DNA of 64,000 nt, from NCBI GenBank assembly GCA_902388735.1, contig CABMQL010000001.1, positions 44,064 to 108,063 on the forward strand, read 5' to 3'. Within the stretch, counting starts at the first letter, position 1; the number at the start of each line of letters is the position of its first letter. Both the position numbers and the translations under genes were made by a program. Shown piece after piece: positions 6,765 to 64,000 of the stretch. Under the pieces are notes generated by a model. It was not told the origin of the DNA. It saw only the letters and a program-made list of their open reading frames with translations, and did not search any database. This DNA comes from an uncultured Eubacteriales bacterium. Its GTDB lineage: Bacteria; Bacillota; Clostridia; Oscillospirales; Oscillospiraceae.

Positions 6765-7040
6765 ATTCCAACAAACGATGAAGGAGAGCAGTACTCCCGC
6801 GCGGGATGCCAAGAGAGGAAGCGGCCGGTGTGAGCTTCCGTGACGGCGGGGAGGAAGTCGCTCCGGAGTTCTGCCGCCCAGCGAGAGCAAGCGGCAGCGG
6901 CCGGCCGCCGTTATCGGTTTTTGAGTGCGGAGGGTTCCCCCCTCCGAACACAGGTGGTACCACGGACTGTATTTATGGTTCGCCCTGTTTTGCTTTTGCG
7001 GCAAGACGGAGCGGACCTTTTGTTTTGCCGAATTTCGGAA
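6765..7040 (+). promoter_or_regulatory. T-box riboswitch leader upstream of valS
   Basis: Long GC-rich untranslated leader. Contains the T-box core caGGTGGTACCacgg at ~6953-6965, followed by hairpin/U-rich elements before the valS SD. Standard context for a tRNA synthetase in Firmicutes. Confidence 0.65.
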
Positions 7041-7054
7041 AAGGAGAGTTCACC

Positions 7055-10369: not shown

Positions 10370-10690
10370 ATGCAAGTAAAAGCAGAGAGCGCGGATCGCA
10401 GGCTGCGGCTGCGCCTGTCCGGCGAGCTGGATCACCATGCCGCCCGCCAGCTTATGAAAAACATCGCAAACGAACTGGAATATGCGCTGCCGCTGGAGGT
10501 TATCCTGGATTTTTCCGGCGTGACCTTCATGGACAGCTCCGGCATTGCTATAGCGCTGCACACGCTGCAGCAGGTAAAGCAGCTAGGGGGAAAAATGCGG
10601 ATCGTGAATCCATCGGCGCAGGTAAAAAAGGTGTTTTTCGCGGCCGGTATCCAAAGAATGATCGAAATGGAGGATGCAGATGAAAAGTGA
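10370..10690 (+). CDS. spoIIAA: Anti-sigma-F factor antagonist SpoIIAA (STAS domain)
   Basis: 106 aa, LSGELDHH motif, first gene of the spoIIA operon. Confidence 0.9.
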   Translation: MQVKAESADRRLRLRLSGELDHHAARQLMKNIANELEYALPLEVILDFSGVTFMDSSGIAIALHTLQQVKQLGGKMRIVNPSAQVKKVFFAAGIQRMIEMEDADEK

Positions 10691-11123
10691 AAATCAGGTA
10701 GCGCTGGAATTTCCCAGCCGCAGCAGCAATGAAGCATTTGCCCGGGTGGCAGCAGCGGGTTTTGCCATGCAGCTGGACCCCACGCTGGAGGAACTGGGGG
10801 ACATCAAAACGGCAGTCAGCGAGGCGGTGACCAACGCCATCGTTCACGGCTATCCGGAGGATTTTGGACGGATCGTTATGAAGCTGCGGATCCGGGAGGG
10901 AAACATCCTGGAGATCGTGGTCAAGGACTGGGGCGTGGGCATTGCGGATGTGGAGCAGGCCCGCAAGCCCATGTTTACCACCGGAAACGATGAGCGCAGC
11001 GGCATGGGCTTTACCATTATGGAGAGCTTCATGGATACACTGCGTGTGCGGTCTGCGCCGCAGAAAGGGACAACGGTGACCATGCGTAAGCGGATCTCCA
11101 CCCGGCTGGGGGAGCGGAAATGA
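10674..11123 (+). CDS. spoIIAB: Anti-sigma-F factor SpoIIAB (serine kinase)
   Basis: 149 aa, GHKL-type kinase motifs. Overlaps spoIIAA by 17 nt and sigF by 4 nt. Confidence 0.9.
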   Translation: MQMKSENQVALEFPSRSSNEAFARVAAAGFAMQLDPTLEELGDIKTAVSEAVTNAIVHGYPEDFGRIVMKLRIREGNILEIVVKDWGVGIADVEQARKPMFTTGNDERSGMGFTIMESFMDTLRVRSAPQKGTTVTMRKRISTRLGERK

Positions 11124-11827
11124 GTGACAGCAGACTGGCCCTGCTGGATCGGGCACAGTCGGGGGACAGCGATGCCTGCGAAAAAATGCTGATGGAAAAC
11201 AGCGGGCTGATCTGGGCCGTAGTGCGGCGATACTACGGCTGCGGGGCAGACCCGGAGGACCTGTATCAGCTGGGATGCATAGGATTCATAAAAGCTGTAA
11301 AGGGATTTGACATTACATATGGAACGCAGTTTTCCACCTATGCGGTGCCAAAGATCGCGGGAGAAATTCGGCGATTTTTACGGGATGACGGACCGGTGAA
11401 GGTAGGGCGCACACTGCGGGAGAGAGGGCAAAGTATCTGGTCGGCCCGACAGCGGCTGCGCACCGCCTTAGGGCGGGAACCGAGGTTATCAGAGGTCGCC
11501 GCCGAGACCGGATGGAGCGCCGAGGAGATCGCCGCGGCGGAACTGGCCGTCTCCGCTCCGGAATCGCTGCAGCAGGAGACGGCGGAGGGGCTGACGCTGG
11601 AATCTACCCTGGGCACGGACGCGCCGGAGGAGTCCCTGGTTGAAAAAATCGCGCTCCGGGAGGCCATACGGGCCCTTCCGGAGCGGGAACAGGAAACGAT
11701 TTATCTTCGGTTCTTCAAATGCATGACTCAGGAGCAGGCGGCGCGGATCCTGGGAGTGTCTCAGGTGCAGGTATCCCGTCTGGAGCGGAAGGGAGTGGCA
11801 CATCTGCGGGAGATGCTTCGGGAATAA
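11120..11827 (+). CDS. sigF: Sporulation sigma factor SigF
   Basis: 235-aa sigma-70 family protein. Third gene of the spoIIA operon. Confidence 0.92.
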   Translation: MSDSRLALLDRAQSGDSDACEKMLMENSGLIWAVVRRYYGCGADPEDLYQLGCIGFIKAVKGFDITYGTQFSTYAVPKIAGEIRRFLRDDGPVKVGRTLRERGQSIWSARQRLRTALGREPRLSEVAAETGWSAEEIAAAELAVSAPESLQQETAEGLTLESTLGTDAPEESLVEKIALREAIRALPEREQETIYLRFFKCMTQEQAARILGVSQVQVSRLERKGVAHLREMLRE

Positions 11828-12590
11828 AGGCGCTTTCCGACTGGAACTCCGTCATGGTAGCGCGATAGCGCTTGGGCAAAAATGTGTTTTGGCAGCGCGG
11901 GTTATACCGATCTTCAATGGCAACGGTGTCAAAAAATGTTTTCCACAGCTTGCGGTATTGCGCCTCCTGTTCGTCCGGCGGCGCAAGGGTCAGGGAATCG
12001 GCCTGCACAATGTGGGACCGGCCCCCGCTGTATAAAAGCAGCTCCCCATGCGTGCGGTCATACAGGAAAAAGGATTCGTTGGCGTAGCGGCTGCAAAAGT
12101 AACCCCTCAGAAAGGGGAGCACCCGGTTTTTGGGCTCAATCTCAGCGCCTAATATGCCGCCGAAGTCGGAGAAGCGCACAAAGCCCCGGAGCTTTTCCAG
12201 CTCGCCGGATAAATGGCGGACGGCCTTATATAGCGGGAAGCAGGCCTCACCAGAGGTGCGGTGCAAAAACTGCGGGCCATCGGCATAGAGCTTTTGGACA
12301 AAACGGTACAGACAGGCTTCCTTGTCGGCCATGCAGGTGTGAAAGGCCCGGTAAAGCAGGCGCCCCGCCCGGGCAGAGCGGCTTTCGATGCTGCGCAGGA
12401 TACGTTCGCTGTGCGTGAGGTCTGTTTCCACACAGCGGACGGGATAAAGAGTGAGAACGGGAAATTCCTCATTGCCGGCAAAGGCAATGGGGAATTCTTT
12501 ATTTACATAACTCTCATAAATGCAGCAGAGAAATCCTTCGTAGCTGCCGTCATATTCATAAACCATGTCGATCCAGGACACTGCGTTCAC
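11715..12590 (-). CDS. Probable DNA metabolism protein, TIGR03915/DUF4130 type (partner of the radical-SAM DNA repair protein)
   Basis: 291 aa. The start overlaps the stop of the upstream radical-SAM gene. The C-terminal ~37 aa are Pro-rich, low-complexity, and encoded antisense to the 3' end of sigF. Confidence 0.7.
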   Translation of the reverse strand: MNAVSWIDMVYEYDGSYEGFLCCIYESYVNKEFPIAFAGNEEFPVLTLYPVRCVETDLTHSERILRSIESRSARAGRLLYRAFHTCMADKEACLYRFVQKLYADGPQFLHRTSGEACFPLYKAVRHLSGELEKLRGFVRFSDFGGILGAEIEPKNRVLPFLRGYFCSRYANESFFLYDRTHGELLLYSGGRSHIVQADSLTLAPPDEQEAQYRKLWKTFFDTVAIEDRYNPRCQNTFLPKRYRATMTEFQSESAFIPEASPADVPLPSAPDGIPAPETLPGSAPPAPESCI

Positions 12591-13855
12591 CCCGTTGCGT
12601 CAAAGAGAGATAGCTGCTGGGCGGCCGGAACAGGCAGACTGCCGCGTTCCACAGCCTGCAGCTGAAAGGCCAGGCTATCGGCGGTAAAATGAAGTCCCTC
12701 CCGCATGCGTCCGCCGCACAGGATAAAAAATTGTGCCCGCTTGAGAACGATACCCATCTTCTTCAGGTCGTCAAAATGGAGAGGACCCGTTCGCCGGGCG
12801 GAAAGTATGCGCCGGGCGCCGGTGGGGCCGATGCCGGGGACACGCAGAAGCCGGTCTAAGCCGGCGGTCATGATCTCCACGGGAAACTGCTCCGGGTGGG
12901 TGATGGCCCAATAGCACTTCGGATCCAGCATGGGATCGAAATTCGGGTGCTGGTCATCCAGCAATTCCTCGGCCCGGAAACCATAAGACCGCAGGAGCCA
13001 ATCCGCCTGGTACAGCCGATGTTCCCGCAGAAGCGGCGGCTTGGTATGCAGTGCAGGGAGGAGGGGGTTTTCCACAACGGGCACATATGCGGAATAAAAG
13101 ACCCGTTTGAGCCGATAGCGGGCATACAGTGATTCGGTCAGATGCAGAATGTGCCGGTCACTATCCTCCGTGGCGCCCACAATGAGCTGCGTGCTCTGCC
13201 CGGCCGGGGCAAAGGCGGGGGCGTGGCGGTACTTCACCAGTTCCTCTTTATTCTGCCGGCCCTGGGCCTCAATGAGCCGCATGGGCGCAAGAATGGCGGC
13301 CTTGCTCTTGTCCGGGGCCAGGGAGGCCAGTCCCTTTTGGGACGGCAGCTCAATATTCACGCTGAGACGGTCCGCCAAATAGCCCAGCCGCTGCACCAGC
13401 TCAGGGCTTGTGCCGGGAATGGCCTTGGCGTGGATATAGCCGTTGAAGCCGTATTCCTGCCGCAGCAGCCGCAGCGACTCGATCATGCGCAGGGTGGTAT
13501 AGTCCGGGTCGCGCAGAACACCGCTGGAGAGAAAAAGTCCCTCAATATAGTTGCGGCGATAGAACTGAATGGTCAGATCGGCCAGCTCCCGGGGAGTAAA
13601 CGCGGTGCGGCGGGTATCGTTGCTGCGGCGGTTGACACAGTATTTGCAGTCGTACACACAGTAATTGGTCATGAGCACCTTCAGCAGGGAGATGCAGCGT
13701 CCGTCAGCGGAAAAGCTGTGACAACAGCCGGCAATGGAGGAGGATGTATTTCCGATCATCCCGGGACGAGAACCGCGCTTGACGCCGCTGGATGTACAGG
13801 AAGCGTCATATTTGGCGGCATCCGTGAGGATGGTCAGCTTATCCAGCAGGTCCAT
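12587..13855 (-). CDS. Putative DNA modification/repair radical SAM protein (TIGR03916 type, C-terminal HhH domain)
   Basis: 422 aa. CxxxCxxC-type cluster region (CVYDCKYC) and C-terminal helix-hairpin-helix (PGIGPTGARRIL). Conserved pairing with a DUF4130 gene. Confidence 0.85.
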   Translation of the reverse strand: MDLLDKLTILTDAAKYDASCTSSGVKRGSRPGMIGNTSSSIAGCCHSFSADGRCISLLKVLMTNYCVYDCKYCVNRRSNDTRRTAFTPRELADLTIQFYRRNYIEGLFLSSGVLRDPDYTTLRMIESLRLLRQEYGFNGYIHAKAIPGTSPELVQRLGYLADRLSVNIELPSQKGLASLAPDKSKAAILAPMRLIEAQGRQNKEELVKYRHAPAFAPAGQSTQLIVGATEDSDRHILHLTESLYARYRLKRVFYSAYVPVVENPLLPALHTKPPLLREHRLYQADWLLRSYGFRAEELLDDQHPNFDPMLDPKCYWAITHPEQFPVEIMTAGLDRLLRVPGIGPTGARRILSARRTGPLHFDDLKKMGIVLKRAQFFILCGGRMREGLHFTADSLAFQLQAVERGSLPVPAAQQLSLFDATG

Positions 13856-42592: not shown

Positions 42593-43516
42593 GTGATCGC
42601 TTTGGTGGAACGCTATGCAATCAGTCAGTATGAGCAGGCGGCGCATTTGCTGCCGGTGCGCTGGCAGCGCATTGCCCTGCAGCTGCCGGACTGGCAGAAG
42701 GAACAGGCGGAGGAGCTGCGCCTGCGGGCGGGTCACCCCATGACGGTGCTGCTGCCCCAGGGGGAGCAGGTCATAGGGGAGGAGTCCGTGGTGACCCAGG
42801 GAGACCTGGAGCTGCTGTGCGACACGGTGACGGGTTACTCCCGCTACGCCGCCGCAGAGACCATGGCCCGGGGATACATAACCGCCAAAGGCGGCTTTCG
42901 CATAGGCTTGTGCGGCACCGCCGTCGTGCAGGAGGGCAGGAGCACCAATCTGCGCAGCCTGTCCTCCGCCTGCGTTCGCATTGCCCGGGAAATGCCGGGT
43001 CTGGCGGAGGACCTGGCGCCCCAGCTGTTTCAGGGCGGCACGTTTTGCAGCACGCTCATCATCGCCCCGCCCGGCCTGGGCAAAACTACGCTTCTGCGGG
43101 ATCTGGTGCGCTGCTTATCCGATGGATCGGAGACCGTGCCGGCCCACCGTGTCTCCCTGGTGGATGAACGGGGGGAGGTGGCGGTCATGGTGCAGGGCAT
43201 GGCGCAAATGGAGATCGGCTGCCACACGGATGTCATGGACGGTTGCCCCAAGGCTGTGGCCATTCCCATGCTGCTGCGCTCGGCCAATCCACAGATCATC
43301 GCCGTGGACGAGATCACCCAGGCGGAGGACATTTTGGCCATGGAGGAAGCCGCCCACTGCGGCGTTCGCTTTGTGGCCACCATCCATGCAGACTCGGCTG
43401 CCGACCTAAAAAAACGTCCCCTGCTGCGCAAGCTGCAGCGCACACAGATCTTTGAAAAAGCCATCTGTATCCGCCTGTCGGACAGGCTCCGCCGCTACCG
43501 GATCGAGGATCTATGA
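42593..43516 (+). CDS. spoIIIAA: Stage III sporulation protein AA (secretion-type ATPase)
   Basis: 307 aa, Walker A PPGLGKTT. GTG start preceded by AAAAGGAGG. Confidence 0.85.
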   Translation: MIALVERYAISQYEQAAHLLPVRWQRIALQLPDWQKEQAEELRLRAGHPMTVLLPQGEQVIGEESVVTQGDLELLCDTVTGYSRYAAAETMARGYITAKGGFRIGLCGTAVVQEGRSTNLRSLSSACVRIAREMPGLAEDLAPQLFQGGTFCSTLIIAPPGLGKTTLLRDLVRCLSDGSETVPAHRVSLVDERGEVAVMVQGMAQMEIGCHTDVMDGCPKAVAIPMLLRSANPQIIAVDEITQAEDILAMEEAAHCGVRFVATIHADSAADLKKRPLLRKLQRTQIFEKAICIRLSDRLRRYRIEDL

Positions 43517-43998
43517 GCAGCAAGGTGATCGGCGCGCTGCTGATCCTGTCGGCAGGCGGAGGGCTGCTTGCGCAGCTATGGCGGCAGGATCGGGCGGAGA
43601 TCCTCTTTCTGCAGGATATGGCCTCGGCGCTGGAGCAGATGGAAGCCGCCATCCGCTTCCGCCGCCTGCCCATGCCGGAGCTTTTGCGGGAACAGACGGA
43701 AAGGCCATACTGCGGGAGTGTTTTTTCCCTGATTTTACAGCATATGGAAAGGGGAGAGCCTTTACAGACTTCCTGGGCCCTGTCCGCACGGTCCATACCG
43801 TGGGCGCAGGCGGCGAATGCACTTTGCGCCCTGGAATTATCCGGCGACGGGCAGCGGCTTGGGGAAAACCTGCGTGCTTGTGCCGATTCCCTGCGCGCGG
43901 TGCTGCGGTGCAGGCAGACCGATAAGCAGCAGCGGCAGAAAATGACCCTGGCCCTGACGGCCTCCTGCTGCGGGCTGCTGGTGATTCTTTTACTGTGA
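43513..43998 (+). CDS. spoIIIAB: Stage III sporulation protein AB
   Basis: 161 aa; position and ATGA overlap. Confidence 0.8.
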   Translation: MSSKVIGALLILSAGGGLLAQLWRQDRAEILFLQDMASALEQMEAAIRFRRLPMPELLREQTERPYCGSVFSLILQHMERGEPLQTSWALSARSIPWAQAANALCALELSGDGQRLGENLRACADSLRAVLRCRQTDKQQRQKMTLALTASCCGLLVILLL

Positions 43999-44007
43999 GG
44001 AGTACAC

Positions 44008-44202
44008 ATGGATGTTGATTTGATTTTCAAGATCGCCGCCGTGGGGATCCTGGTGGCAGTGCTGAATTTGGTGCTGGCCCGCAGCGGCCGAGAGGAGCAG
44101 GCCATGATGACCACCCTGGCGGGGCTGGTGGTGGTACTGATGATGCTGGTGCGGCAGATCAGCGACCTGTTCGACCTGGTCAAGTCCCTGTTTTCCCTGT
44201 AA
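44008..44202 (+). CDS. spoIIIAC: Stage III sporulation protein AC
   Basis: 64-aa two-TM protein. Confidence 0.8.
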   Translation: MDVDLIFKIAAVGILVAVLNLVLARSGREEQAMMTTLAGLVVVLMMLVRQISDLFDLVKSLFSL

Positions 44203-44204
44203 CC

Positions 44205-44591
44205 ATGACGGAGTTGGGGAAAATAGCCGCCATCTGCCTTGTGGGCATTGTGCTGGCGCTGCTGCTGCAGAAAAATAACCCGGAGCTGGCCATTCTGCTG
44301 GCCTTGGCCGTCTGCGCAGGGGTGCTGATTTTCGGGCTGGGACATATGAAAAGCGTCCTGGCCATGCTGGAGCAGATGGCCCAGGCCGGGGGCCTGTCGT
44401 CCGATCTGCTCCAGCCGCTGCTGAAAACCGTGGGCATAGCCCTCGTCAGCCGCACAGGCGCGGAGCTGTGCCGGGATGCGGATCAGAAAGCCATGGCGTC
44501 TGTGGTGGAAGCGGCCGGCGCCTTCAGTGCCGTGGTTGTATCCATTCCGCTTTTGGGCGCGGTGTGGGAGCTGCTGCGGGGGATGCTGTGA
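44205..44591 (+). CDS. spoIIIAD: Stage III sporulation protein AD
   Basis: 128-aa membrane protein. Confidence 0.8.
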   Translation: MTELGKIAAICLVGIVLALLLQKNNPELAILLALAVCAGVLIFGLGHMKSVLAMLEQMAQAGGLSSDLLQPLLKTVGIALVSRTGAELCRDADQKAMASVVEAAGAFSAVVVSIPLLGAVWELLRGML

Positions 44592-45667
44592 TGCGGAAAA
44601 TATTGGTTTTGCTGCTGCTGATTTGGTGCATTGTTCCGGCTTGTGCCGCGGATATCCCCCAGGATCTGACGGATGCCATCCCGGACAGTGCCCGGGAACT
44701 TCTAGACGATACCGACAAGGCCGATAGCTTTACATCACTGACCGATGGTCTGTCCGGCCTGTGGAACCGAACCTGCAAGCTTCTGATAGTGACTGTGCAG
44801 GACAGCCTGGGCGGTGTGATTTTGGTGCTGTCCGCTATTTTGCTGTGTTCGGTGGCAGAGGATTGCTTCAGCGCCGCCGGCGGCAAGCTGTTTGATCCGG
44901 TGCCCCTGGTGGGCACGCTTGTGATTCTCCTGGCGGTGGGGAGCAACATGAAAAATCTCATGGGCCTGGGGGAGGAAACCATCCAGGAGCTGAATGTTTT
45001 CTCCAAGGCGCTTCTGCCTACGCTTTCCGCGGCCACAGCCGCCGGCGGGGGCGCGGTGGCCGCCAGCGTGCGCCAGGTGGCCACGGTGTTCTTTTCGGAC
45101 CTGCTCATGAGCCTGATCCATAGCCTGCTGCTGCCCCTGGTGTGGGTTTTCGTGGCCCTCTCGGCCACGGACGCCATTCTGCCCGCCGGGCGGCTGGGCG
45201 GCATCGCCCGTGGCCTGCAGAAGGGCATTACCTGGCTGCTGTCCGGGAGTCTGCTTTTGTTCACGGGTTATCTGTCCCTGTCCGGTGCCTTCGCCTCATC
45301 GGCGGATAATCTGACCCTGCGGATGACCCGCTCGGCCATCGGCGGGGCGATCCCCGTGGTGGGCAGCATCATATCCGATGCGGCGGATACCATCCTGGCC
45401 GGGGCGGGCGTGCTGAAGCAGTCTGTGGGGATTCTCGGCACACTGACTATCCTGGCGGCCTGCATCCTGCCGTTTTTGAAATTGGGTGTGCAGTATTTGC
45501 TGCTGAAGCTCTCGGCATTTTTTGCGGCCACGGTAGCGCCGGAGCCGCTGGTGAAGCTGGTAGACTCTTTAAGCACCGCCTTTGGTCTGGTGTTGGGAAT
45601 GACCGGCGCGGCGGCAGCGCTTTTGCTGATCTCCGTTGCCTCGTCTGTGATGGTGGTGAGTGTATGA
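44591..45667 (+). CDS. spoIIIAE: Stage III sporulation protein AE
   Basis: 358 aa, signal peptide plus polytopic membrane domain. TGATG overlap with spoIIIAD. Confidence 0.85.
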   Translation: MRKILVLLLLIWCIVPACAADIPQDLTDAIPDSARELLDDTDKADSFTSLTDGLSGLWNRTCKLLIVTVQDSLGGVILVLSAILLCSVAEDCFSAAGGKLFDPVPLVGTLVILLAVGSNMKNLMGLGEETIQELNVFSKALLPTLSAATAAGGGAVAASVRQVATVFFSDLLMSLIHSLLLPLVWVFVALSATDAILPAGRLGGIARGLQKGITWLLSGSLLLFTGYLSLSGAFASSADNLTLRMTRSAIGGAIPVVGSIISDAADTILAGAGVLKQSVGILGTLTILAACILPFLKLGVQYLLLKLSAFFAATVAPEPLVKLVDSLSTAFGLVLGMTGAAAALLLISVASSVMVVSV

Positions 45668-46143
45668 TGGATGCATTTCGGATTTGGCTGATAGGTCTGA
45701 TGGCGGTGGCGCTGATCCTCACGGTGCTCTCGGCGGTGCTCCCGGAGGGCAGCGTAAAGAAGATTGCCGGCGTCACCGGGGGTCTGGTGCTGCTTTTGGT
45801 CATCCTCCGGGGCGTCGGGCAGCTGGATCTGGGGCAGCTGCAGCTGTCTTATGATGACTGCTCCCGGCAGATCAACGAGCGCATCGAAGCCTTCCAGGAG
45901 AAAAGCCGCCGGGACATGGATCTGCTCATACAGGAGCGGTGCAGTGCATATATATCGGAACAGGCGCAGACGTTCGGCCTTGTGTGCAGTCCCCGGGTGG
46001 AAACGGAGCAGGCGGAAGAAAATGTTTTCATCCCGGTCTCTGTCACCATGGATATATCCTATCACGCCGGATTGTCTCAAATCATGGCGGAAAACTTAGG
46101 AATCGATGCACAGCACCAGAAATGGTTGACATCGGAAGGGTAA
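45664..46143 (+). CDS. spoIIIAF: Stage III sporulation protein AF
   Basis: 159 aa, two N-terminal TM segments. Confidence 0.8.
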   Translation: MMDAFRIWLIGLMAVALILTVLSAVLPEGSVKKIAGVTGGLVLLLVILRGVGQLDLGQLQLSYDDCSRQINERIEAFQEKSRRDMDLLIQERCSAYISEQAQTFGLVCSPRVETEQAEENVFIPVSVTMDISYHAGLSQIMAENLGIDAQHQKWLTSEG

Positions 46144-46145
46144 AA

Positions 46146-46640
46146 ATGATGGGAAAGGTAAGATGGAGCGAGCTATGGAAAAAGTACAAATTTGTTCTGC
46201 TGGTGGTGCTGGTGGGCGTCGTATTGATGCTTCTTCCGGTCTCCTCCAAGACGAAAGAACCGGCGGCGGAAACACGGACCTCAGAGGAGAGCTTCGACCT
46301 GGAGGCGGAGGAGCGGCGCATGGAGGAGCTCCTGGGCCGGATCGATGGCGTTGGGAAGCTCCGACTGATGCTGACGCTGCAAAGCGGGACCCGGCTGACC
46401 CTGGCGGAGGACAGCCAAAGGGATCAGGACCGCACGCAGCGGGAGACGGTAACGCTGAACCGGGGCAGCGGCAGCCAGGAGGTCGTGGTCACAAATCGGT
46501 ATTATCCGGTTTATCAGGGCGCGGTGGTGGTGTGTCAGGGCGCCGACAGCAGCGCCGTTCGTCTGGCCATCACGGAAACCGTGCAGGCGCTGACCGGTCT
46601 GCCGTCCGATCGGATCCAGGTGGCAAAGTGGACATCGTAA
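46146..46640 (+). CDS. spoIIIAG: Stage III sporulation protein AG
   Basis: 164 aa, single N-terminal TM plus a YscJ/FliF-like ring domain. Start inferred inside the longer tool ORF. Confidence 0.8.
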   Translation: MMGKVRWSELWKKYKFVLLVVLVGVVLMLLPVSSKTKEPAAETRTSEESFDLEAEERRMEELLGRIDGVGKLRLMLTLQSGTRLTLAEDSQRDQDRTQRETVTLNRGSGSQEVVVTNRYYPVYQGAVVVCQGADSSAVRLAITETVQALTGLPSDRIQVAKWTS

Positions 46641-46654
46641 CGGGAGGACATGGT

Positions 46655-47194
46655 ATGAAGAAGAACTGGAAAAAACGGGCTGTTGTGGGGGCAGTGCTGC
46701 TGTTCGTGTGTGCGGCGGTGTATATGAACTGGCGCTATGCCGGCTCTTTGGAGGACACCTCCAAGGTGCTGGGCGAATCCACTCTGGTGTCCGGAGAAAA
46801 GACCGGTGAGACAGCCGCCGCCGGGCAGCCGGCGGCCAATGAAAACGACTATTTTGCCACGGCCCGGCTCAGCCGCAAGCAGGCCCGGGATAACGCCATC
46901 AACATGCTCAAGGATGCGTCCACAGACGAGAACGCGGACCAATCGGTGCTCAACGAGGCCTCTGAGACGCTGCAGGTGCTGGCAGGCTATACCGTGGCGG
47001 AGTCGCAGATCGAGAACCTGGTCACGGCCAAGGGCTATGCCGACTGCGTGGCCTTCATGGGTGCCGAGAGCATCAGTGTCGTGGTGGACGATGCCGACGG
47101 ACTGGACGCCACGGACGTGGCCCGCATCATGGACATCGTGGTTCAGGAGACCGGCTATGCGCCCAATCAGATCAAGGTCCTGGAATCCGATTAA
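46655..47194 (+). CDS. spoIIIAH: Stage III sporulation protein AH
   Basis: 179 aa, single TM. SD GGGAGGA. The tool ORF 46163..47194 is a GC-frame extension across spoIIIAG. Confidence 0.8.
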   Translation: MKKNWKKRAVVGAVLLFVCAAVYMNWRYAGSLEDTSKVLGESTLVSGEKTGETAAAGQPAANENDYFATARLSRKQARDNAINMLKDASTDENADQSVLNEASETLQVLAGYTVAESQIENLVTAKGYADCVAFMGAESISVVVDDADGLDATDVARIMDIVVQETGYAPNQIKVLESD

Positions 47195-49413: not shown

Positions 49414-49630
49414 AGAAAATATGACCCGCCTGGAGGAGATCGTGTCCCTGCTGGAGCAGGGGGACGCCCCCCTGAGCGAATCCCTGGCTCTTTTTTCCGA
49501 GGGCAGCAAGTTGCTGGCCGCCTGCCGGAAGGAGCTGGACACCGCCCAGCAAAAGGTCGTCAAGCTCTCCAAGGGCCCGGACGGCACACCTGTTGAAGAA
49601 GATTTTTTATCCGAGGAGGAAAACCAATGA
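49394..49630 (+). CDS. xseB: Exodeoxyribonuclease VII small subunit
   Basis: 78 aa, XseB family. Overlaps xseA. Confidence 0.9.
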   Translation: MKKATFEENMTRLEEIVSLLEQGDAPLSESLALFSEGSKLLAACRKELDTAQQKVVKLSKGPDGTPVEEDFLSEEENQ

Positions 49631-50499
49631 GCTATCAAGAACGCTATACCGCCTATCAGGAGGCCATCGAGGCCTATCTGGACACGATTTTTTCTGCGGA
49701 GGACAAGCCCTATGGCAAGCTCCAGGAGTCCATTCGCTATAGCCTCCTGACCGGGGGTAAGCGGATCCGCCCGGTGCTGACGCTGGAGTTTGCCCGCCTG
49801 GGCGGCATTGACTGGCACCTGGCTCTGCCCTATGCCTGTGCCCTGGAGCTGGTGCATAATTATTCGCTGATCCACGATGACCTGCCCTGCATGGATGATG
49901 ACGATCTCCGCCGGGGCAAGCCCACCAATCACAAGGTGTATGGGGAAACGCTGGCCGTCCTGGCGGGAGACGCCATGCAGCCGGAGGCGTTCCGCCTGAT
50001 CCTCCAGGCCCGGGGCCTTTCGGCCGAAAACCGTATCGAAGCGGCGCTGATCCTGGCAAAAGCCTGCGGTGCCGATGGCATGGTGGCCGGCCAGGTGCTG
50101 GACACGCTGTGCCATGTGGGGAACGAGGAGGGCCTTGCCACGCTGAACCGGCTGAAGACCGGCGTGATGATCTCCGCCGCGGCGGAGCTGGGCTGCGTGG
50201 CCTCCAAAATGCCCATGTTCTGGCGGCAGCAGGCCGTGCAGTACGCGGAACAGCTGGGCCTGGCCTTCCAGATCCGGGATGATATGCTGGATGTCATGGG
50301 CGACGAGAGCGTGTTCGGCAAGCCCATCGGCTCGGACAAGGACGAGGGTAAGATCACCTATGTCGATCTCAAGGGCCTGGACGGCTGCGCCCAGGAGGTG
50401 GAGAAATGCACCGCCGCTGCCAAGGAGGCCATCCGTGACATTCCAGACCATGAATTTCTCTGGGAGCTGGCAGACCGCATGGTGGGCCGGAACAAGTAA
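49627..50499 (+). CDS. ispA: Farnesyl diphosphate synthase (geranyltranstransferase)
   Basis: 290 aa. FARM (LIHDDLPCMDDDDLRRG) and SARM (FQIRDDMLD) motifs. Confidence 0.92.
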   Translation: MSYQERYTAYQEAIEAYLDTIFSAEDKPYGKLQESIRYSLLTGGKRIRPVLTLEFARLGGIDWHLALPYACALELVHNYSLIHDDLPCMDDDDLRRGKPTNHKVYGETLAVLAGDAMQPEAFRLILQARGLSAENRIEAALILAKACGADGMVAGQVLDTLCHVGNEEGLATLNRLKTGVMISAAAELGCVASKMPMFWRQQAVQYAEQLGLAFQIRDDMLDVMGDESVFGKPIGSDKDEGKITYVDLKGLDGCAQEVEKCTAAAKEAIRDIPDHEFLWELADRMVGRNK

Positions 50500-50515
50500 C
50501 GGAAAATCAGATTCA

Positions 50516-50552
50516 ATGCCCCCCGCACCTGCGGGAGGCATTGTTTTGTTTC
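50516..50552 (+). terminator. ispA intrinsic terminator
   Basis: aatgccccccgc-acct-gcgggaggcatt followed by gTTTTgTTT. Confidence 0.65.
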
Positions 50553-50574
50553 TGTTAGTTTTTGCATAAAACTA

Positions 50575-50603
50575 TTGTATATTTGAATGGACTGTGCTAA
50601 AAT
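50575..50603 (+). promoter_or_regulatory. Sigma-A promoter of the large ncRNA (TTGTAT-17-TAAAAT with TGn extended -10)
   Basis: Hexamers and spacing read directly; ~7 nt upstream of the 5' arm of the RNA's terminal helix. Confidence 0.55.
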
Positions 50604-50609
50604 TAGAAA

Positions 50610-51265
50610 TTACTGAATGACGGTGCAGTATCCTAGTCAGATCTGCCGTCTTGTAAGAGGGGCCTAAAAATCCCTTAAAGGGCACAACTGTGAAGCCTCT
50701 GGTGCCTGCTTCTTACGCCCAGTTTGGGGTGGGTGCTGGAGGGAGGCGCGGCCAAATACCGCGCCTGCAAAAGTAGGGCGCCTTCCAATGGCATGGAAGA
50801 CCCGACCCTGCTTTTGTGGAGACCTGCTCTTGTGCACAGGCGTACTCCCCTGGTGGTAAGCGACCTGTGTACGAAGCAGATTGAGAACCTGCAATGCGGT
50901 GCTACACGGCCCTCCGGCCGCGAACGCTGTGTGCAGAGTAGCCTGCCTTGCGTGGAGTGGGTGGATGAGGGAGCCAAGCGGAAGCATCCCCGGCCAGGGA
51001 TGCTCTCCGATATTCCTCTGAAACCCCCTCTGCAAAAGAGGCTAAGAGACGGTTTGACTGCAGTGGAAATCACCTAGGCTGTCCCACAAAGGGCGTCGAT
51101 GAGGTTGCAGTGCGGACTAAGTGGCAGTCGGGTCCTGCGGTAGGTAACGCCGCAGCTCGGGTTTTAATGGGAAACCGCCTGATCGGCAACGAGAGGTAAC
51201 CCGCGGGGAAATCCAACCCGTACCTAAGCCGTAAGATTTATCATCGGGGCTGCCGTCATTCAGTT
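50610..51265 (+). ncRNA. ole: Large (~650 nt) structured non-coding RNA; locus context matches OLE (ornate, large, extremophilic) RNA
   Basis: 790-nt gap between ispA and the next credible gene with no SD-led ORF. The 5' end CUGAAUGACGGUGCAG pairs with the 3' end CUGCCGUCAUUCAG, followed by a U-tract. Many internal GC hairpins. Own promoter. Flanked by ispA upstream and an OapA-like 4-TM protein then dxs downstream, which is the canonical OLE locus. The OLE consensus itself could not be checked here. Confidence 0.6.
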
Positions 51266-51295
51266 TTTATTTTTATATAAGCGAGGGAATCGGAT

Positions 51296-51841
51296 TTGGC
51301 TGACCATGATAAAAACAAAAAGGGCAAGGACCATTGGCCCCTGCGGGTGTTTTGGATCGCAGTCGCTCTGTCCGCCGTGATGAGTTTTTGCTCCTCGGCG
51401 GCGCTGGAGGACAGCGGCATATGGATCCCGGTCCTGGTGCTGATGATCTTCATCGCGCTGGGCATCGTGTTCGACATGATTGGCGTAGCCGTCACGGCGG
51501 CGGATCCCAGGCCGTTTCACTCCATGGCGGCCCACGGGGAAAAGGGCGGCCGGGAGGCCATCCGCCTGCTGAATAAATCCAGCAAGGTTTCTTCGATTTG
51601 CAATGACGTGGTGGGTGATATCTGCGGCATCGTCAGCGGCTCAACGGCGGCGGTGATCGTGGTGGAGCTGCAGCGCAGCTTTTCCACCACCACGATTCTT
51701 ATTTCCATCGGCGTCACGGCGCTTATCTCGGGCCTGACCATCGGCGGCAAGGCTCTTTTCAAGCGTGTAGCCATTGAGGAGTCCACCAAGGTGGTCTACC
51801 GTGTCGCCCGTATTATGAATGCGCTGCATCTGTTCCGTTGA
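51296..51841 (+). CDS. oapA: OLE-associated protein A-like small membrane protein (4 TM segments)
   Basis: 181 aa, TTG start, four hydrophobic helices with conserved Asp-containing loops (FDMIG, NDVVGD). The stop overlaps the dxs leader. Confidence 0.6.
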   Translation: MADHDKNKKGKDHWPLRVFWIAVALSAVMSFCSSAALEDSGIWIPVLVLMIFIALGIVFDMIGVAVTAADPRPFHSMAAHGEKGGREAIRLLNKSSKVSSICNDVVGDICGIVSGSTAAVIVVELQRSFSTTTILISIGVTALISGLTIGGKALFKRVAIEESTKVVYRVARIMNALHLFR

Positions 51842-51855
51842 CGGAGGGATTTACA

Positions 51856-53718
51856 TTGGTTTTAGAAAAGATCCGTGATCCGGAGGACATAAAAAATCTG
51901 AATGACGAGCAGGTAGACCAGCTTTGCCGGGAGCTTCGTGCGTTTCTCATCAAGAGCGTTGCCAAGACCGGCGGGCACCTGGCGTCCAACCTGGGCGTTG
52001 TGGAGCTGACGGTGGCCATCCACCGGGTGTTTGATACTACTAAGGACCGACTGGTCTTTGACGTAGGGCATCAGTGCTACCCGCATAAGATCCTCACCGG
52101 TCGGCAGTCGCTTTTTGGCACTTTGCGGCAGCTGGGCGGCCTTTCCGGCTTTCCCAAGCCCTATGAAAGTGCGCATGACGCCTTCGTGGCCGGCCACGCA
52201 TCCAATTCCGTGTCCGTGGCTTTAGGTATGGCCCACGCCAGAACGCTGCTCCACCAGGATTACAGCGTCATTGCTCTCATTGGCGACGGCGCCATGACCG
52301 GTGGGCTGAGCTTTGAGGGCCTCAACGACGCAGGTGCGTCGGGAGAGCCGATGATCGTCATCCTCAATGATAACGGCATGTCCATTGGCGCCAATGTTGG
52401 CGGCCTCAGCCGCCACCTGTCCCGTCTCCGCTCGGAGGAGGGGTATAATAACTTCAAAAAATGGTATAAGGAAAAGCTCCAGGGGGATTCTCCCGCCAAG
52501 CAGAATTTGTATCGGGCCAGCTCCCATGTGAAGCGCTGGCTCAAGAACACCCTGCTGCCGGAGAGCACCATGTTCGAGAAGATGGGCTTTTCCTATATGG
52601 GCCCTGTGGATGGCCACGATGTGCAGAAGCTGACTCAGATGCTCACCTGGGCCAGGGAGAAGAACGAGCCCGTGCTGCTCCACGTGCTCACGGAGAAGGG
52701 GAGAGGGTATCCCTTTGCCCAGCAGGACCCGGAGCATTTCCACGGTACACCCCCCTTTGACGCCGTCACCGGCAAGCCTTTGCGGGCGCCTGTCCGTTCC
52801 TTTTCCAATGTGTTCGGGGACACGCTGCTGGAGCTTGCCCGGCAGGATCCCCGCCTCTGCGCCATCACGGCTGCCATGACCTCCGGCACCGGCCTGACGG
52901 AGTTTTCCAAGGAGCTGCCGGACCGGTTTTTCGATGTAGGTATTGCGGAGGGGCACGCCGTGGCCATGGCCGGCGGTATGGCCAAACAGGGGCTGATCCC
53001 CGTGTTTGCGGTGTACTCCAGCTTTCTGCAGCGTGGCTTTGACATGCTCATCCATGATATATCCCTGGATGATCTCCACGCCGTTTTCTGCGTGGATCGC
53101 GCGGGTCTTGTGGGCGCGGACGGGCAGACCCACCACGGCTGCTTTGACCCGGCCTATCTCACCGAGATCCCCGGCATGACGGTTCTGTGTCCCGCCAGCT
53201 TTGCAGAGCTTCGGGATATGCTTCGGTATGCCATCTATCAGGTGGGCGGCCCCGTGGCCATTCGGTACCCCCGTGGCGGGGAAAAGGCCTATACAGCCGC
53301 GGCCGAACCCGGGTGCAGCTATACACTGTTGCGGGATGGGTCTGACTTCACCATTTTGTCCTACGGGATTCTAATTAACGAGGCCCTGCAGGCCGCAGAT
53401 TTGCTGGCGGAAAAGGGCATCTCCGTGCGGGTTTTGAAGCTCAACCGCATTGCGCCGCTGAGCAAAGAAGATGTAGCCGCCATGCTGTCCGGAACCCGGC
53501 GCCTGCTGGTGCTGGAGGACTGCATCGCAGCCGGCTGTGTGGGCGAAAAGGTCGCCTGTCTGGCGGCATTGTCGGGCATCTGTTTGGACAAGCTGGTGCT
53601 GAAAAACTGCGGGGACCGCCTGCCCAACGAGGGCAGCGTGGAGGAGTTGGATCGCGCCCTTGGGCTGGATGCGGCTTCTGTGGCCGCATCTATTGAGGAG
53701 GTGCTCCATGAGCAATAA
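51856..53718 (+). CDS. dxs: 1-deoxy-D-xylulose-5-phosphate synthase
   Basis: TPP-binding and transketolase-like domains (GDG...N motif). Start set to an in-frame TTG 6 nt after GGAGGG; the tool's own start is an upstream TTG. Confidence 0.9.
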   Translation: MVLEKIRDPEDIKNLNDEQVDQLCRELRAFLIKSVAKTGGHLASNLGVVELTVAIHRVFDTTKDRLVFDVGHQCYPHKILTGRQSLFGTLRQLGGLSGFPKPYESAHDAFVAGHASNSVSVALGMAHARTLLHQDYSVIALIGDGAMTGGLSFEGLNDAGASGEPMIVILNDNGMSIGANVGGLSRHLSRLRSEEGYNNFKKWYKEKLQGDSPAKQNLYRASSHVKRWLKNTLLPESTMFEKMGFSYMGPVDGHDVQKLTQMLTWAREKNEPVLLHVLTEKGRGYPFAQQDPEHFHGTPPFDAVTGKPLRAPVRSFSNVFGDTLLELARQDPRLCAITAAMTSGTGLTEFSKELPDRFFDVGIAEGHAVAMAGGMAKQGLIPVFAVYSSFLQRGFDMLIHDISLDDLHAVFCVDRAGLVGADGQTHHGCFDPAYLTEIPGMTVLCPASFAELRDMLRYAIYQVGGPVAIRYPRGGEKAYTAAAEPGCSYTLLRDGSDFTILSYGILINEALQAADLLAEKGISVRVLKLNRIAPLSKEDVAAMLSGTRRLLVLEDCIAAGCVGEKVACLAALSGICLDKLVLKNCGDRLPNEGSVEELDRALGLDAASVAASIEEVLHEQ

Positions 53719-57574: not shown

Positions 57575-57885
57575 AAGTTCATATTCTTACAGCGATGATG
57601 GGAAAAAGTAACACCGATTCTGCCTGCCAAGAGAGCCTCCGTTGGGTGCAAGGAGGAGAGGGGAGCGGCTGTGAATACATTCCGGAGCTGCCTTCCGAAC
57701 GGGTGTGTGCCTCAGTAGGGATGCGTCGGGCGCGCCCGTTACAGCGCAGGAGTGCAGCGCACTCCGTGAGGCCGCAGACCGTGAGGCTGCGGCGAATATG
57801 AGGTGGTACCGTGACATATGTCGCCCTCTGTCCAAAGAGACAGGGGGCGATTTTTTCTCCTGTCTGATCTGCATCAAAAGAAAGG
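57575..57885 (+). promoter_or_regulatory. T-box riboswitch leader of tyrS
   Basis: T-box core AAUAUGAGGUGGUACCGUG (~57795-57813). UAC-containing specifier candidate (GAAUACAUU). Terminator gtcgccctctgtc-caaa-gagacagggggcga followed by TTTTTTc immediately before the tyrS SD. Confidence 0.8.
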
Positions 57886-57894
57886 AACGAAAAA

Positions 57895-59121
57895 ATGGGA
57901 ATTTATGAAGAACTGATCACCCGCGGGCTGATCGCACAGGTGACCAACGAGGACGAGATCCGTGAGATGGTCAACAACGGCAAGGCAACCTTCTACATCG
58001 GCTTTGACTGTACGGCGGACTCCCTGCATGTAGGTCACTTTATGGCTCTGTGCCTGATGAAGCGCCTGCAGATGGCCGGCAATAAGCCTATCGCCCTTAT
58101 CGGCGACGGCACTACCATGATCGGCGACCCCTCCGGCCGGACGGATATGCGCAAAATGCTCACCCGCGAGGACATCGTGCACAATGCCGAGTGCTTCAAG
58201 CGCCAGATGGAGAAATTCATCGACTTCTCTGACGGGAAAGCGCTGATGCTCTATAATTCCGAGTGGCTGATGCCGCTGAATTATATTGAGCTGCTGCGGG
58301 AGGTAGGCGCCTGCTTCTCCGTGAACAATATGCTGCGGGCCGAGTGCTATAAGCAGCGCATGGAAAAGGGCTTGAGCTTCCTGGAGTTCAACTACATGAT
58401 CATGCAGAGCTATGACTTCTACTACATGTTCCAGCACTACGGCTGCAATATGCAGTTTGGCGGCAACGACCAGTGGAGCAACATGCTGGGCGGCACGGAG
58501 CTGATCCGCCGCAAGCTGGGTAAGGATGCCCACGCCATGACCATCAACCTGCTGCTGAATTCCGAGGGCAAGAAGATGGGCAAGACCGCCTCCGGCGCCG
58601 TGTGGCTGGATCCCAATAAGACCAGCCCCTTCGAGTTCTATCAGTACTGGCGCAATGTGGATGACGCGGATGTGATCAAGTGCCTGCGGATGCTGACCTT
58701 CCTCCCGCTGGAGGAGATCGACGCCATGGCCGACTGGAAGGATGCCAAGCTCAACGAGGCCAAGGATATTTTGGCCTATGAGCTGACGAAGCTGGTCCAT
58801 AGCGAGGATGAGGCCAATAAGGCCCGGGAGGCATCCCGTGCGCTGTTCTCCGGCAAGGGGGATACCACCCATATGCCCGCCACCGAGATCGCGGCCGACA
58901 AGCTGACAGACGGCAAGATCGGCGTCATGGCGCTGCTGGTGGAGTGCGGCCTGTGCGCATCCAACAGTGAGGCCCGGCGGCTGGTGCAGCAGGGCGGCGT
59001 CAGCGTGAACGACGCGAAGGTGGAGTCCATTGACGCCGCCTTTGACGCGGACAGCCTGGCCGGCGAGGGTGTCATCATCAAGAAGGGCAAGAAGATCTTC
59101 CACAGGGCATTTATGAAGTAA
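57895..59121 (+). CDS. tyrS: Tyrosine--tRNA ligase
   Basis: 408 aa. HIGH (HVGH) and KMGKT motifs, C-terminal S4 domain. Confidence 0.95.
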   Translation: MGIYEELITRGLIAQVTNEDEIREMVNNGKATFYIGFDCTADSLHVGHFMALCLMKRLQMAGNKPIALIGDGTTMIGDPSGRTDMRKMLTREDIVHNAECFKRQMEKFIDFSDGKALMLYNSEWLMPLNYIELLREVGACFSVNNMLRAECYKQRMEKGLSFLEFNYMIMQSYDFYYMFQHYGCNMQFGGNDQWSNMLGGTELIRRKLGKDAHAMTINLLLNSEGKKMGKTASGAVWLDPNKTSPFEFYQYWRNVDDADVIKCLRMLTFLPLEEIDAMADWKDAKLNEAKDILAYELTKLVHSEDEANKAREASRALFSGKGDTTHMPATEIAADKLTDGKIGVMALLVECGLCASNSEARRLVQQGGVSVNDAKVESIDAAFDADSLAGEGVIIKKGKKIFHRAFMK

Positions 59122-62273: not shown

Positions 62274-62289
62274 TCCTTTCATAAATCAG

Positions 62290-62336
62290 AACCTCCCCCA
62301 ATATGCTGAAACAGCATGAGTTGGGGGAGGTTTTTT
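62290..62336 (+). terminator. yajC terminator (long imperfect hairpin + T6)
   Basis: cctccccca...tgggggagg followed by TTTTTTatg. Confidence 0.6.
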
Positions 62337-62762
62337 ATGCGTATTCGGGATTGGATCAACAGGGGCGTAGGCCTGGGCCTGCTGATAAGTTTGCTCCTCT
62401 GCGCAGCCGGGGCGGCACTGGGCGCGATCTTAATAGGCCGGGAGCTTTTAACGGTGGAGTCGGCAGGGAAGTGGATGGCATTCATGTGGCTGCTGGCATC
62501 ATTTGTTGGCTGTAAATTTGCTCTGCGGGGATCGCAGGGCCGGCTTCCTCACGCCGCGGTGCAGGCAGTGCTTCTGTATTTTGTTGTATGGGCTGCAGCG
62601 CTGGCTGTCAGTGCCGTGCCGGACTTTCGGTCAAACGGATGGTATATTACGGGCGCTATCTGGGGCGGTGCGGCCTTGGCGGCATTGATGCCGGACGGCA
62701 AAAGAAAGCGCGCCAAAAGGAAACCTAAATCCCGTAGGGGGAGGGCACACAAAGGACACTAA
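62337..62762 (+). CDS. Hypothetical membrane protein with a basic C-terminal tail
   Basis: 141 aa. SD GGGGAGG. 3-4 hydrophobic helices and a Lys/Arg-rich C-terminus. Confidence 0.55.
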   Translation: MRIRDWINRGVGLGLLISLLLCAAGAALGAILIGRELLTVESAGKWMAFMWLLASFVGCKFALRGSQGRLPHAAVQAVLLYFVVWAAALAVSAVPDFRSNGWYITGAIWGGAALAALMPDGKRKRAKRKPKSRRGRAHKGH

Positions 62763-63085
62763 TAGTCAATTTTACCAAAAATGCGAAACGGTCAAATATT
62801 TTTCTCCCGCCGCCAGGATTCGATCACTTTCTTATGGGACGCAAGATGTTGTGTGGTACATCTCGGGAGGAACAATATTTGGATAAAAAACAGGCTGGAC
62901 GAACCGCTCCGCTCTCTTGTTGATGCAGTTAACATAACGCAGTTTACATAATATTTTGGCATAAATAGAGAAAATGCGGAATCTGCCGCATTTCTCTTGC
63001 CCTTTTGAGGAAAAAGGCTTATAGTATAGATGTTTTCTTCTAAAGAAGATGCTCGTCTCATAGAATATCACGAGGTGAGTATCAC

Positions 63086-63703
63086 ATGAGAAAAAGTCGT
63101 TTGCCCAGGGCTGCGAGAGTCGGGCCTCGGATCGATCCGGCGGTCTTCTTTTTTAGTGTTTCCTTTTTGCTGGGTGGTATCGCCGGATATTTTTCCTGCC
63201 GTGCCATGGGCATCGACGCGGAGATCCGGACCTATCTGACCCGGTATGCGGAGGTCCTGTCCTCCGGCGGCGCCATCACGGCCGCTTCCGTTTTAAGCGT
63301 TGCCGCCGCCTATTACCGGGTGCCCTGCGTGGTTTTTCTTTGCCGGTCATTTCGCCGCGCGTTCTATTGGCATTGCGGTGTTTTCCTGTTAGAGGGCTTC
63401 CTTCTGTCCTTTGCTGTGTCCAGCCTGACACTGGCGCTGGGCCGGACGGGCGTGCTTGTTTCTCTTTGCGTTTTCGGTGTCCGGCTTCTTTTCGTTCTGC
63501 CGGTCTCACTTTCTTTGGCCCTGCTGGGCCGTTCCGCGGGTGAGGAGAGCTCCGGGCGGCGAATGACCCGGTCCGGGCGGAAACGTGAGAGCAATCGGCT
63601 CCGCTTTTTATTTGTTTATCCCGCGCTCCTGGCGCTGGGCGTCATGGTAGAACTAACATTTGTACCCAAGCTGGCAGCCTTTGCGCTGCTGCATATTTCA
63701 TGA
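63086..63703 (+). CDS. Polytopic membrane protein, possible stage II sporulation protein M homolog
   Basis: 205 aa. Shares short motifs with B. subtilis SpoIIM (GFLLSF; C-terminal E-x-x-V-P-x-L). Precedes xerD, as spoIIM often does. Confidence 0.45.
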   Translation: MRKSRLPRAARVGPRIDPAVFFFSVSFLLGGIAGYFSCRAMGIDAEIRTYLTRYAEVLSSGGAITAASVLSVAAAYYRVPCVVFLCRSFRRAFYWHCGVFLLEGFLLSFAVSSLTLALGRTGVLVSLCVFGVRLLFVLPVSLSLALLGRSAGEESSGRRMTRSGRKRESNRLRFLFVYPALLALGVMVELTFVPKLAAFALLHIS

Positions 63704-63719
63704 AAGGGAGGTGAGAGTG

Positions 63720-64000
63720 TGACGGATTATTTGGCGCTCTACCGCAGCTATCTCACAACTGAAAAGCGCATGTCCGCAAACACTGTCAGCTCCTATATGC
63801 GGGATCTGAGTCAGTATGACCAGTGGCTCAAGCAGAAGAAGACCGACCTGAAGCGCGCCAAGAACATCCTTTTGCAGGAGTATGTGAAGCGGTTGGAGCA
63901 GTTGGGCAAGTCTCCGGCCACCATGAGCCGGTTTCTGGCCTCCTCCAAATCTTTTTATGCCTACATGTTTGCCAAGGGTTACATAAAAACCAACCCCACT
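63720..64000 (+). CDS. xerD: Tyrosine recombinase XerD/XerC, N-terminal part (continues beyond the window)
   Basis: GTG start after GGGAGGTGAG. N-terminal core-binding domain motifs (LSANTVSSY, ATMSRFLASSKSFY). Confidence 0.8.

Follow-up and report, generated by a model that had tools for sequence, protein, structure and literature searches.

OLE RNAs are among the largest conserved bacterial RNAs without known biochemical function, and each well-delimited example is comparative material. In the species studied, they are stable, abundant, membrane-bound components of ribonucleoprotein (RNP) particles, and the functional model derives from Halalkalibacterium halodurans and two Clostridium species. 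Domain 1 of the RNA consists of helices P3–P9 and domain 2 of P1, P2 and P10–P15; P3 and P3.1 usually total 12 bp and enclose domain 1 (PMC12265935). The membrane partner OapA belongs to the next-best CNNM-scoring group after MpfA and has four helices and a DxxxD motif (Fernando & Breaker, PMC11332333). Here we describe the region between ispA and dxs in a 64,000-nt stretch of DNA (the window) from an uncultured Eubacteriales bacterium of the Oscillospiraceae. With a probability of roughly 95%, this region is an ole gene, which encodes a full-length OLE RNA of ~660 nt and is followed by oapA, the gene for the four-helix membrane partner. The element is an ordinary member of the already described family, and a standard Rfam scan detects it. 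A literature search on OLE together with Oscillospiraceae found no paper.

In a scan of the whole window with Rfam 15, the OLE model (RF01071) matches the plus strand with 425 bits (E 1.9e-121, gathering score 50) over model positions 1–616 of 616, not truncated (Table 1). An earlier reading made from the letters alone (the sequence-only reading) had placed a structured non-coding RNA of ~650 nt between ispA and dxs and proposed this very covariance-model search as a check; the end-to-end match falls in the same place. At 214 of the 249 strongly conserved (upper-case) consensus positions (86%) the window RNA is identical to the model, relative to which it carries 58 inserted nucleotides and five deleted positions. 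None of the deletions lies at model positions 198–383, so P7, P8 and P9 are present and the RNA is of the full-length type. The spacer that holds it runs from the stop codon of ispA (farnesyl-diphosphate synthase gene, 49627–50499) to the oapA start at 51296. Its 796 nt make it the largest clear internal gap in an approximate gene map of the window (a gap in the map at 11.8–12.6 kb is occupied by a 291-aa minus-strand open reading frame, ORF), and its G+C content is 0.54, versus 0.36–0.45 in most other spacers. The earlier description of a GC-rich stretch of ~790 nt, the largest non-coding one in the window, thus holds for the window up to its last 1.7 kb.

The 181-aa protein encoded immediately downstream is, by homology, a member of the OapA family. 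Aligned over 172 aa with the OapA that Kretsch et al. 2025 list in their Supplementary Table 4 (PMC12286853), the protein of that year's cryo-electron microscopy (cryo-EM) study, it is 35% identical (E 2e-30) and has the motifs PFHxMA, CNDV[VI]GDI and GGKA in common with it. There are four hydrophobic segments (residues ~16–37, 42–68, 104–125 and 130–153), and the DxxxD motif, here DVVGD at residues 104–108, does not vary in alignments of 16 and of 55 homologues. The CNNM domain (PF01595) matches with 26.7 bits, under the cut-off of 28.4, and is listed as 'weak' in precomputed hits. All of this agrees with the identification of a four-transmembrane (TM) OapA proposed from the translation. More than 5,600 homologues are present in the protein collection. 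A sequence search of the PDB returned no relative at E up to 1, and no NCBIfam model matched OapA. The sequence-only reading was right that this gene precedes dxs. The translational overlap that it proposed between the two genes is less likely, as dxs most likely starts at a TTG 14 nt after the oapA stop, at the position equivalent to that in public gene calls; an alternative TTG at 51838 would overlap the oapA stop.

An OapA alignment served to search for relatives, each species being represented by one genome. This gave 80 loci, all from uncultured Clostridiales/Oscillospiraceae, Vescimonas, Oscillibacter, Dysosmobacter and relatives, and 34 of them were scanned with Rfam. Every one of the 34 carries a full-length OLE RNA upstream of an oapA homologue (384–418 bits). 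OLE is therefore not notable for this kind of genome, contrary to what had been suggested before. The best relative has a DNA identity of only 83% over a syntenic 8.3 kb, so the species of the window is not among the species representatives. The exact 181-aa protein was found in 323 blocks of the assembly index, which indicates an organism common in metagenomes (hundreds of assemblies). The gap between OLE and oapA is usually 30–70 nt; it measures 150–450 nt in loci L004, L038, L039, L045, L068 and L076, and in L073 OLE (936–1603) lies ~2.4 kb upstream of oapA (at ~4001). Locus L010 has a purine riboswitch aptamer upstream (1775–1874, 46 bits, gathering score 37).

The family assignment is borne out by covariation. 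The 35 RNAs (window plus 34 loci) were aligned, and the Rfam structure was projected onto them via the window row. Standard pairs fill 88.6% of the cells, as opposed to 38–53% in controls in which the 3' partners were slid by 1–3 columns; both partners change in 81 pairs, and none of 500 shuffles reaches the observed values. Compensatory change in the orthologous ispA–dxs spacers, which had been named as a check of the RNA, is thus abundant in the clade. The OLE region also folds far more stably than shuffled sequences (z = -7.9). Because the opposite strand does so too (z = -8.6), thermodynamic stability cannot tell the strands apart, and the plus strand is assigned on the basis of the Rfam match, the promoter and many invariant G.U pairs.

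Table 1. Features of the ole–oapA–dxs locus in window coordinates
Feature	Position	Strand	Details
ispA intrinsic terminator	50514..50551	+	hairpin 50514-50543, -23.4 kcal/mol, then UUUUGUUU; directly upstream of OLE promoter
OLE promoter	50575..50603	+	-35 TTGTAT 50575-80, 17-nt spacer, TG 50595-96, -10 TAAAAT 50598-603
OLE RNA, full-length type	50604..51272	+	RF01071 match; predicted transcript ~50610 to 51270, ~660 nt
Terminal helix, P1-like	50613-50623 (CUGAAUGACGG) with 51253-51263 (CCGUCAUUCAG)	+	11 bp, -16.9 kcal/mol
P3/P3.1-like long-range helices enclosing domain 1	50634-38/51056-60 (5 bp), 50646-52/51046-52 (7 bp)	+	sum 12 bp
Hairpin with conserved A-rich loop CUAAAAAU	50657..50676	+	Rfam pairs; 99% paired, 2 covarying pairs
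P5/P5.1-type long hairpin, conserved GCCCA loop	50696..50742	+	Rfam pairs 93-139; 20 pairs, 90.9% paired
J5/6 clade-specific 8-bp hairpin	50744..50766	+	between consensus positions 141 and 142; 22-nt insertion relative to Rfam model
P6/P6.1, loop CAAUGGCAUG	50769..50815	+	Rfam pairs; loop invariant 35/35
P9-type long arm	50945..51042	+	Rfam pairs; ends in hairpin 50984-51003 with self-complementary GGCC in loop
P13-type hairpin, GNRA tetraloop GUAA (51144-47) and 5'-side bulge	51135..51155	+	Rfam alignment; putative OapB-binding determinants
Terminal helix 3' strand and U-tract	51253..51276	+	helix 51253-63, UUUUUAUUUUUAU 51264-76; terminator-like 3' end
oapA	51296..51841	+	181 aa; TTG start; Shine-Dalgarno GAGGGA 51284-89; 32 nt 3' of terminal helix
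dxs	51856..53718	+	TIGR00204 672 bits; likely TTG start 51856, Shine-Dalgarno GGAGGG 51843-48

Both the terminal helix and the P3/P3.1-like helices lie outside the Rfam structure line. In the terminal helix, six of 11 pairs are changed on both sides (e.g. CUGAAUGA/UCAUUCAG, CUGAACAG/CUGUUCAG and GCUAAGC/GCUUAGC) and 89.5% of cells are paired; the minimum-free-energy fold recovers it too, so the closing helix of the sequence-only reading is real. An octamer, CUGCCGUC, occurs twice in the RNA, at 50643–50650 and 51250–51257, and both copies are complementary to 50619–50628 (GACGGUGCAG). It is the distal copy that pairs in the terminal helix; the proximal one coincides in part with the 5' arm of the P3-like helix. 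As the RNA is being made, the 5' arm of the terminal helix could at first be engaged by the proximal copy. The P3/P3.1-like helices are paired in 99% of cells (32–57% when slid); four of the seven inner pairs covary and the 5-bp helix is invariant. The published names P3 and P3.1 would apply to this 12-bp connector if the text of PMC12265935 is followed, and on the same basis the hairpin with the A-rich loop would be P4, the A-rich dimer contact.

The remaining hairpins follow the family structure. Many invariant G.U pairs in the P5/P5.1-type hairpin fix the strand, and the GGCC of the P9-type loop is invariant in all 35 RNAs; the symmetrical P9 loop is a dimer kissing contact of published OLE RNA (PMC12265935). 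Both putative dimer-contact sequences, the GGCC loop and the P6.1 loop, are thus kept. Binding of OapB needs a GNRA loop plus a single-nucleotide bulge (PMC7936274). Both GNRA hairpins of the OapB region are retained, and the P13-type one has a G[UC][AG]A loop in 35 of 35 RNAs and a one-nucleotide asymmetry on its 5' side, with a bulge register, read from the sequence, that differs from the consensus. Of three internal hairpins picked out earlier by eye, two fit the structure. The first (ggcgcggcc/accgcgcc) is the GGCGCGG/CCGCGCC hairpin at 50745–50765, which reaches 8 bp as 50744–50766 with an A-U closing pair; the second (gcatcccc/agggatgc) is GCAUCCC[CGGCCA]GGGAUGC at 50984–51003. The third (cctctgc-aaaa-gaggc) is not a hairpin in the consensus, where the arms of CCUCUGC-AAAA-GAGGC (51027–51042) are the 3' strands of nested long-range helices whose partners are 50952–50958 and 50945–50949.

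The RNA has a promoter of its own. The TTGTAT-17-TAAAAT promoter with an extended -10 that the sequence-only reading had pointed out is present and conserved: all 35 loci have TTGnnn and TAnnnT separated by exactly 17 nt, and 34 of them have the extended TGn. In the 35 loci, 7–9 nt separate the end of the -10 element from the terminal helix, and this fixed distance predicts a start at ~50610–50612, essentially at the helix. A strict consensus promoter scan of 50300–52000 found nothing and missed the OLE promoter as well, because its -35 matches the consensus at only three of six positions. The ispA terminator hairpin upstream is reported for the minus strand by the terminator listing and folds on the plus strand too. 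In a crude scan, a comparable terminator was seen upstream of the promoter in only seven of 34 relatives, and insulation from ispA is accordingly not conserved in the clade. Conserved palindromes lie upstream of or overlap the OLE -35 (alignment A2 columns 18–50) in loci such as L004, L006, L010, L012–L015, L029, L034, L046 and L052. In one group they are of the type TATACAGAATATTCTGCATA, with the core CAGAATATTCTG; in the Oscillibacter group the form is ATATACAAT-GAAT-ATTGTATAT, and the right arm contains the -35. They were not seen in the window or its three closest relatives and could be an operator for a regulator.

At the 3' end, the U-tract noticed earlier after the closing helix is the UUUUUAUUUUUAU directly 3' of it. 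A U-rich tract in this position occurs in ~16 of the 35 loci, mainly the closest relatives of the window, and is absent in the Oscillibacter/Dysosmobacter group. The 32 nt between the helix and the oapA TTG hold only the Shine-Dalgarno GAGGGA, and no promoter-like site was found there, which suggests that oapA–dxs is expressed by read-through from the OLE promoter. This arrangement could also be read as that of a long 5' leader or attenuator, in which the terminal helix and U-tract control oapA–dxs and the stretch acts mainly in cis rather than as a free trans-acting RNA. The short gap free of promoter-like sites, the position of the helix and U-tract just before the oapA Shine-Dalgarno and the apparent dependence of dxs on transcription through the RNA would suit such a leader. 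However, the RNA is a full-length OLE, whose studied members are stable RNP components at the membrane; about half of the clade has no such U-tract but an equally conserved RNA; and in some relatives the RNA lies 150–2400 nt from oapA, which is unfit for an obligatory leader. A mainly cis-acting leader is therefore improbable, and an OLE RNA proper remains the preferred reading.

Three ORFs of 117–132 aa overlap the RNA (50724–51077 on the plus strand, 50664–51035 and 50675–51073 on the minus strand), and in some public metagenome assemblies an 81-aa ORF is called inside OLE (in L081 at 2537–2782, equivalent to 50832–51077 of the window). That the region encodes one of the three is nonetheless hardly credible: they are in frame and open in only 2–7 of 34 orthologues, unlike the neighbouring genes, they do not clear a filter on G+C by codon position (third minus second position, GC3 − GC2 > 0.18), no Pfam family matches the called 81-aa ORF, and substitutions track base-pairing, not codons. 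The overlapping ORFs are very probably artefacts, as the sequence-only reading had judged, and the 81-aa ORF is very likely a false gene call. In practice, automatic gene callers sometimes put such a spurious ORF inside OLE.

The P5/P6 junction differs from that of H. halodurans, in which the OapC k-turn 1a comprises C85-G144 and U84.G145 (C helix), a bulge at 86–88, and G89.A143 and A90.A142; A91-U141 and G92.U140 extend P5 in the same numbering. The Rfam numbering equals that of H. halodurans, with U84 and C85 in AUCGAUGAAG and P6 having its right shoulder at 187–190, and on this numbering the k-turn was placed from text alone. All 35 Oscillospiraceae RNAs have C at position 143 and carry the inserted J5/6 hairpin, 14–35 nt long and with covarying stems. 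The C85-G144 pair is lost in three loci (window, L001 and L002) because the P6 shoulder has changed from GG to AA, a change compensated on the other side. With the C at 143, the hairpin between 141 and 142 and, in these three loci, the lost C85-G144, the homologous positions cannot give rise to k-turn 1a. K-turn 1a is a protein-induced alternative substructure of one species, not a family criterion. The core of k-turn 1b, the form seen by cryo-EM (PMC12054373), is possible in 35 of 35 RNAs: the positions of G89.A195, A90.G194, A91.G193 and C85-G196 never vary, and only eight RNAs have a standard pair at 84-197. Its register, J4a/5 with J6/7, is the one that the text of that paper appears to describe. 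This natural variation bears on which of the proposed structures (P5/P6, k-turn 1a or k-turn 1b) is generally needed. That the altered k-turn 1a positions and the lost C85-G144 mark an OLE-derived relic, no longer functional, has a negligible probability in view of the full-length model match, in which 86% of the most conserved positions are preserved, the compensatory changes that maintain helices across the clade, the conserved promoter and the intact, highly conserved oapA.

The analysis establishes that the RNA belongs to the family, that covariation supports its fold, that its dedicated promoter is conserved and that the downstream protein is of the OapA family; the functional model is drawn from published work (PMC12265935, PMC11332333, PMC12286853, PMC7936274 and PMC9723947). 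Transcription of the OLE RNA would begin 1–3 nt upstream of the terminal helix, driven by a sigma-70-type extended -10 promoter of its own. Some transcripts would end at the U-tract after this helix, and the remaining ones would read through into oapA–dxs–tlyA–nadK–argR–recN. By analogy with published work, the RNA would fold into two domains, with the 12-bp P3/P3.1 helix as their connector, and dimerise via loop contacts that include the self-complementary GGCC loop. OapA dimers, by the same analogy, would bind the RNA and hold it at, possibly across, the cell membrane. Judging from the studied species, the particle may aid tolerance of stresses including short-chain alcohols, cold, excess Mg2+ and poor carbon sources, perhaps through the action of the RNA with OapA as a CNNM-like divalent-cation transporter.

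Nothing speaks against family membership; the weaker points concern the mechanism. K-turn 1a is not formable, and the particle may accordingly contain a different set of proteins in this lineage. The genes for OapB, OapC and bS21 are not in the window: there were no hits to OapB (KOW) or OapC (L7Ae-like) among its small ORFs and no tblastn hits in it with OapC or RpsU (bS21), in line with the earlier remark that it holds no OapB/OapC-like genes. Only part of the clade has the U-tract, and the transcript ends, partial termination and read-through are predicted from the arrangement of these elements. The CorB/CNNM likeness of OapA, published as a similarity of fold to CorB, is suggested here by the profile score, the AlphaFold2 model (built with 55 homologues) being too poor for a fold search, with a predicted local distance difference test (pLDDT) score of 55 and a predicted template modelling (pTM) score of 0.44; it shows long helices at the four hydrophobic segments.

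A particle wired differently from that of H. halodurans would have (a) a terminal helix and U-tract that serve as a long-range, folding-dependent terminator, and (b) an assembly without the OapC-induced switch, or with k-turn 1b only. Part (b) is suggested by the J5/6 hairpin and the A143C change, which abolish k-turn 1a. If (a) were true, the completed OLE fold would decide how much transcription enters oapA and the essential dxs, which would have no promoter of their own. We consider this different wiring unlikely.

The wider surroundings are those of known ole genes. The gene order is spoIIIAA–AH (42593–47194)–asp23–nusB–xseA–xseB–ispA–[OLE]–oapA–dxs–tlyA–nadK–argR–recN (Pfam and NCBIfam), with a T-box leader and then tyrS 3' of recN. 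The literature gives these genes as the neighbours of ole (PMC12265935). OapA is encoded directly downstream, and isoprenoid, DNA-repair, translation and sporulation genes lie around, as they do in the relatives. The host is likewise of the expected sort (Bacillota, anaerobic or extremophilic): the closest loci come from uncultured gut Oscillospiraceae/Clostridiales and the window holds sporulation genes. The genome has a G+C content of ~59%. A STAS anti-sigma-factor antagonist, a HATPase_c_2 anti-sigma kinase and a sigma-70-family factor follow one another at 10370–11827, in a spoIIAA–spoIIAB–sigF arrangement. This row and spoIIIAA–AH indicate that the organism is a spore-former; in the literature, the occurrence of OLE correlates with sporulation genes.

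Elsewhere in the window, two T-box leaders score above the Rfam gathering score. The one at 57586–57831 (101.7 bits) precedes the tyrosyl-tRNA synthetase gene (57895–59121), and the one at 6769–6990 (108.6 bits) precedes a long ORF listed at 6806–9688 (960 aa). On the minus strand at 11715–13855, the 291-aa ORF shares 4 nt with one of 422 aa; the latter contains, in translation, a radical-SAM-like CxxxCxxC motif. The last 1.7 kb (62274–64000, G+C 0.53) is without an ORF in the filtered gene map and without an Rfam family above threshold, and contains in frame 1 one open stretch of ~120 aa with hydrophobic segments.

Among known systems, the Mg2+ transporters MpfA and CorB of the CNNM family are related to the window OapA by distant similarity of the TM domain (PF01595, 26.7 bits). 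Unlike them, OapA lacks CBS or CorC/HlyC domains, has a DxxxD motif and four rather than three TM helices, and scores below the Pfam threshold; in the literature, MpfA is an all-protein analogue that anticorrelates with OLE and is not of the same family. Compared to the studied OapA, the window protein has the same size (181 aa), four predicted TM helices, DxxxD motif, sub-threshold CNNM match and position after ole, at 35% identity, but its sequence is divergent, and RNA binding and dimerisation would hold by analogy. OLE variants 1 (TANB77) and 2 (RF39) also occur in gut-associated uncultured Bacillota. In these variants, P7–P9 are shortened or missing and the OapB site is often lost, whereas the window RNA covers the whole model and keeps its GNRA hairpins.

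The closest counterparts are the full-length OLE RNAs of H. halodurans, Clostridium acetobutylicum and C. botulinum (Fernando & Breaker 2024). The window RNA shares with them the end-to-end match, the conserved nucleotides and ~20 covariation-supported helices, the 12-bp P3/P3.1-like connector, the A-rich loop, the invariant P6.1 loop and the self-complementary GGCC loop, as well as the GNRA hairpins of the OapB site, oapA directly downstream, the gene neighbours and an anaerobic Bacillota host. It differs from them by its 58 inserted nucleotides, including the covarying 8-bp J5/6 hairpin that interrupts the H. halodurans k-turn 1a and longer terminal loops at 50848–61 and 50903–22; the whole clade differs by a C, not an A, at position 143, and the genome by its G+C content of ~59%. 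The lineage-specific traits (the J5/6 hairpin in place of k-turn 1a, the terminator-like end and the conserved dedicated promoter) are modest, and the window OLE adds little that is new: it is the full-length form, which has a strongly conserved promoter of its own in all 34 gut Oscillospiraceae loci tested.

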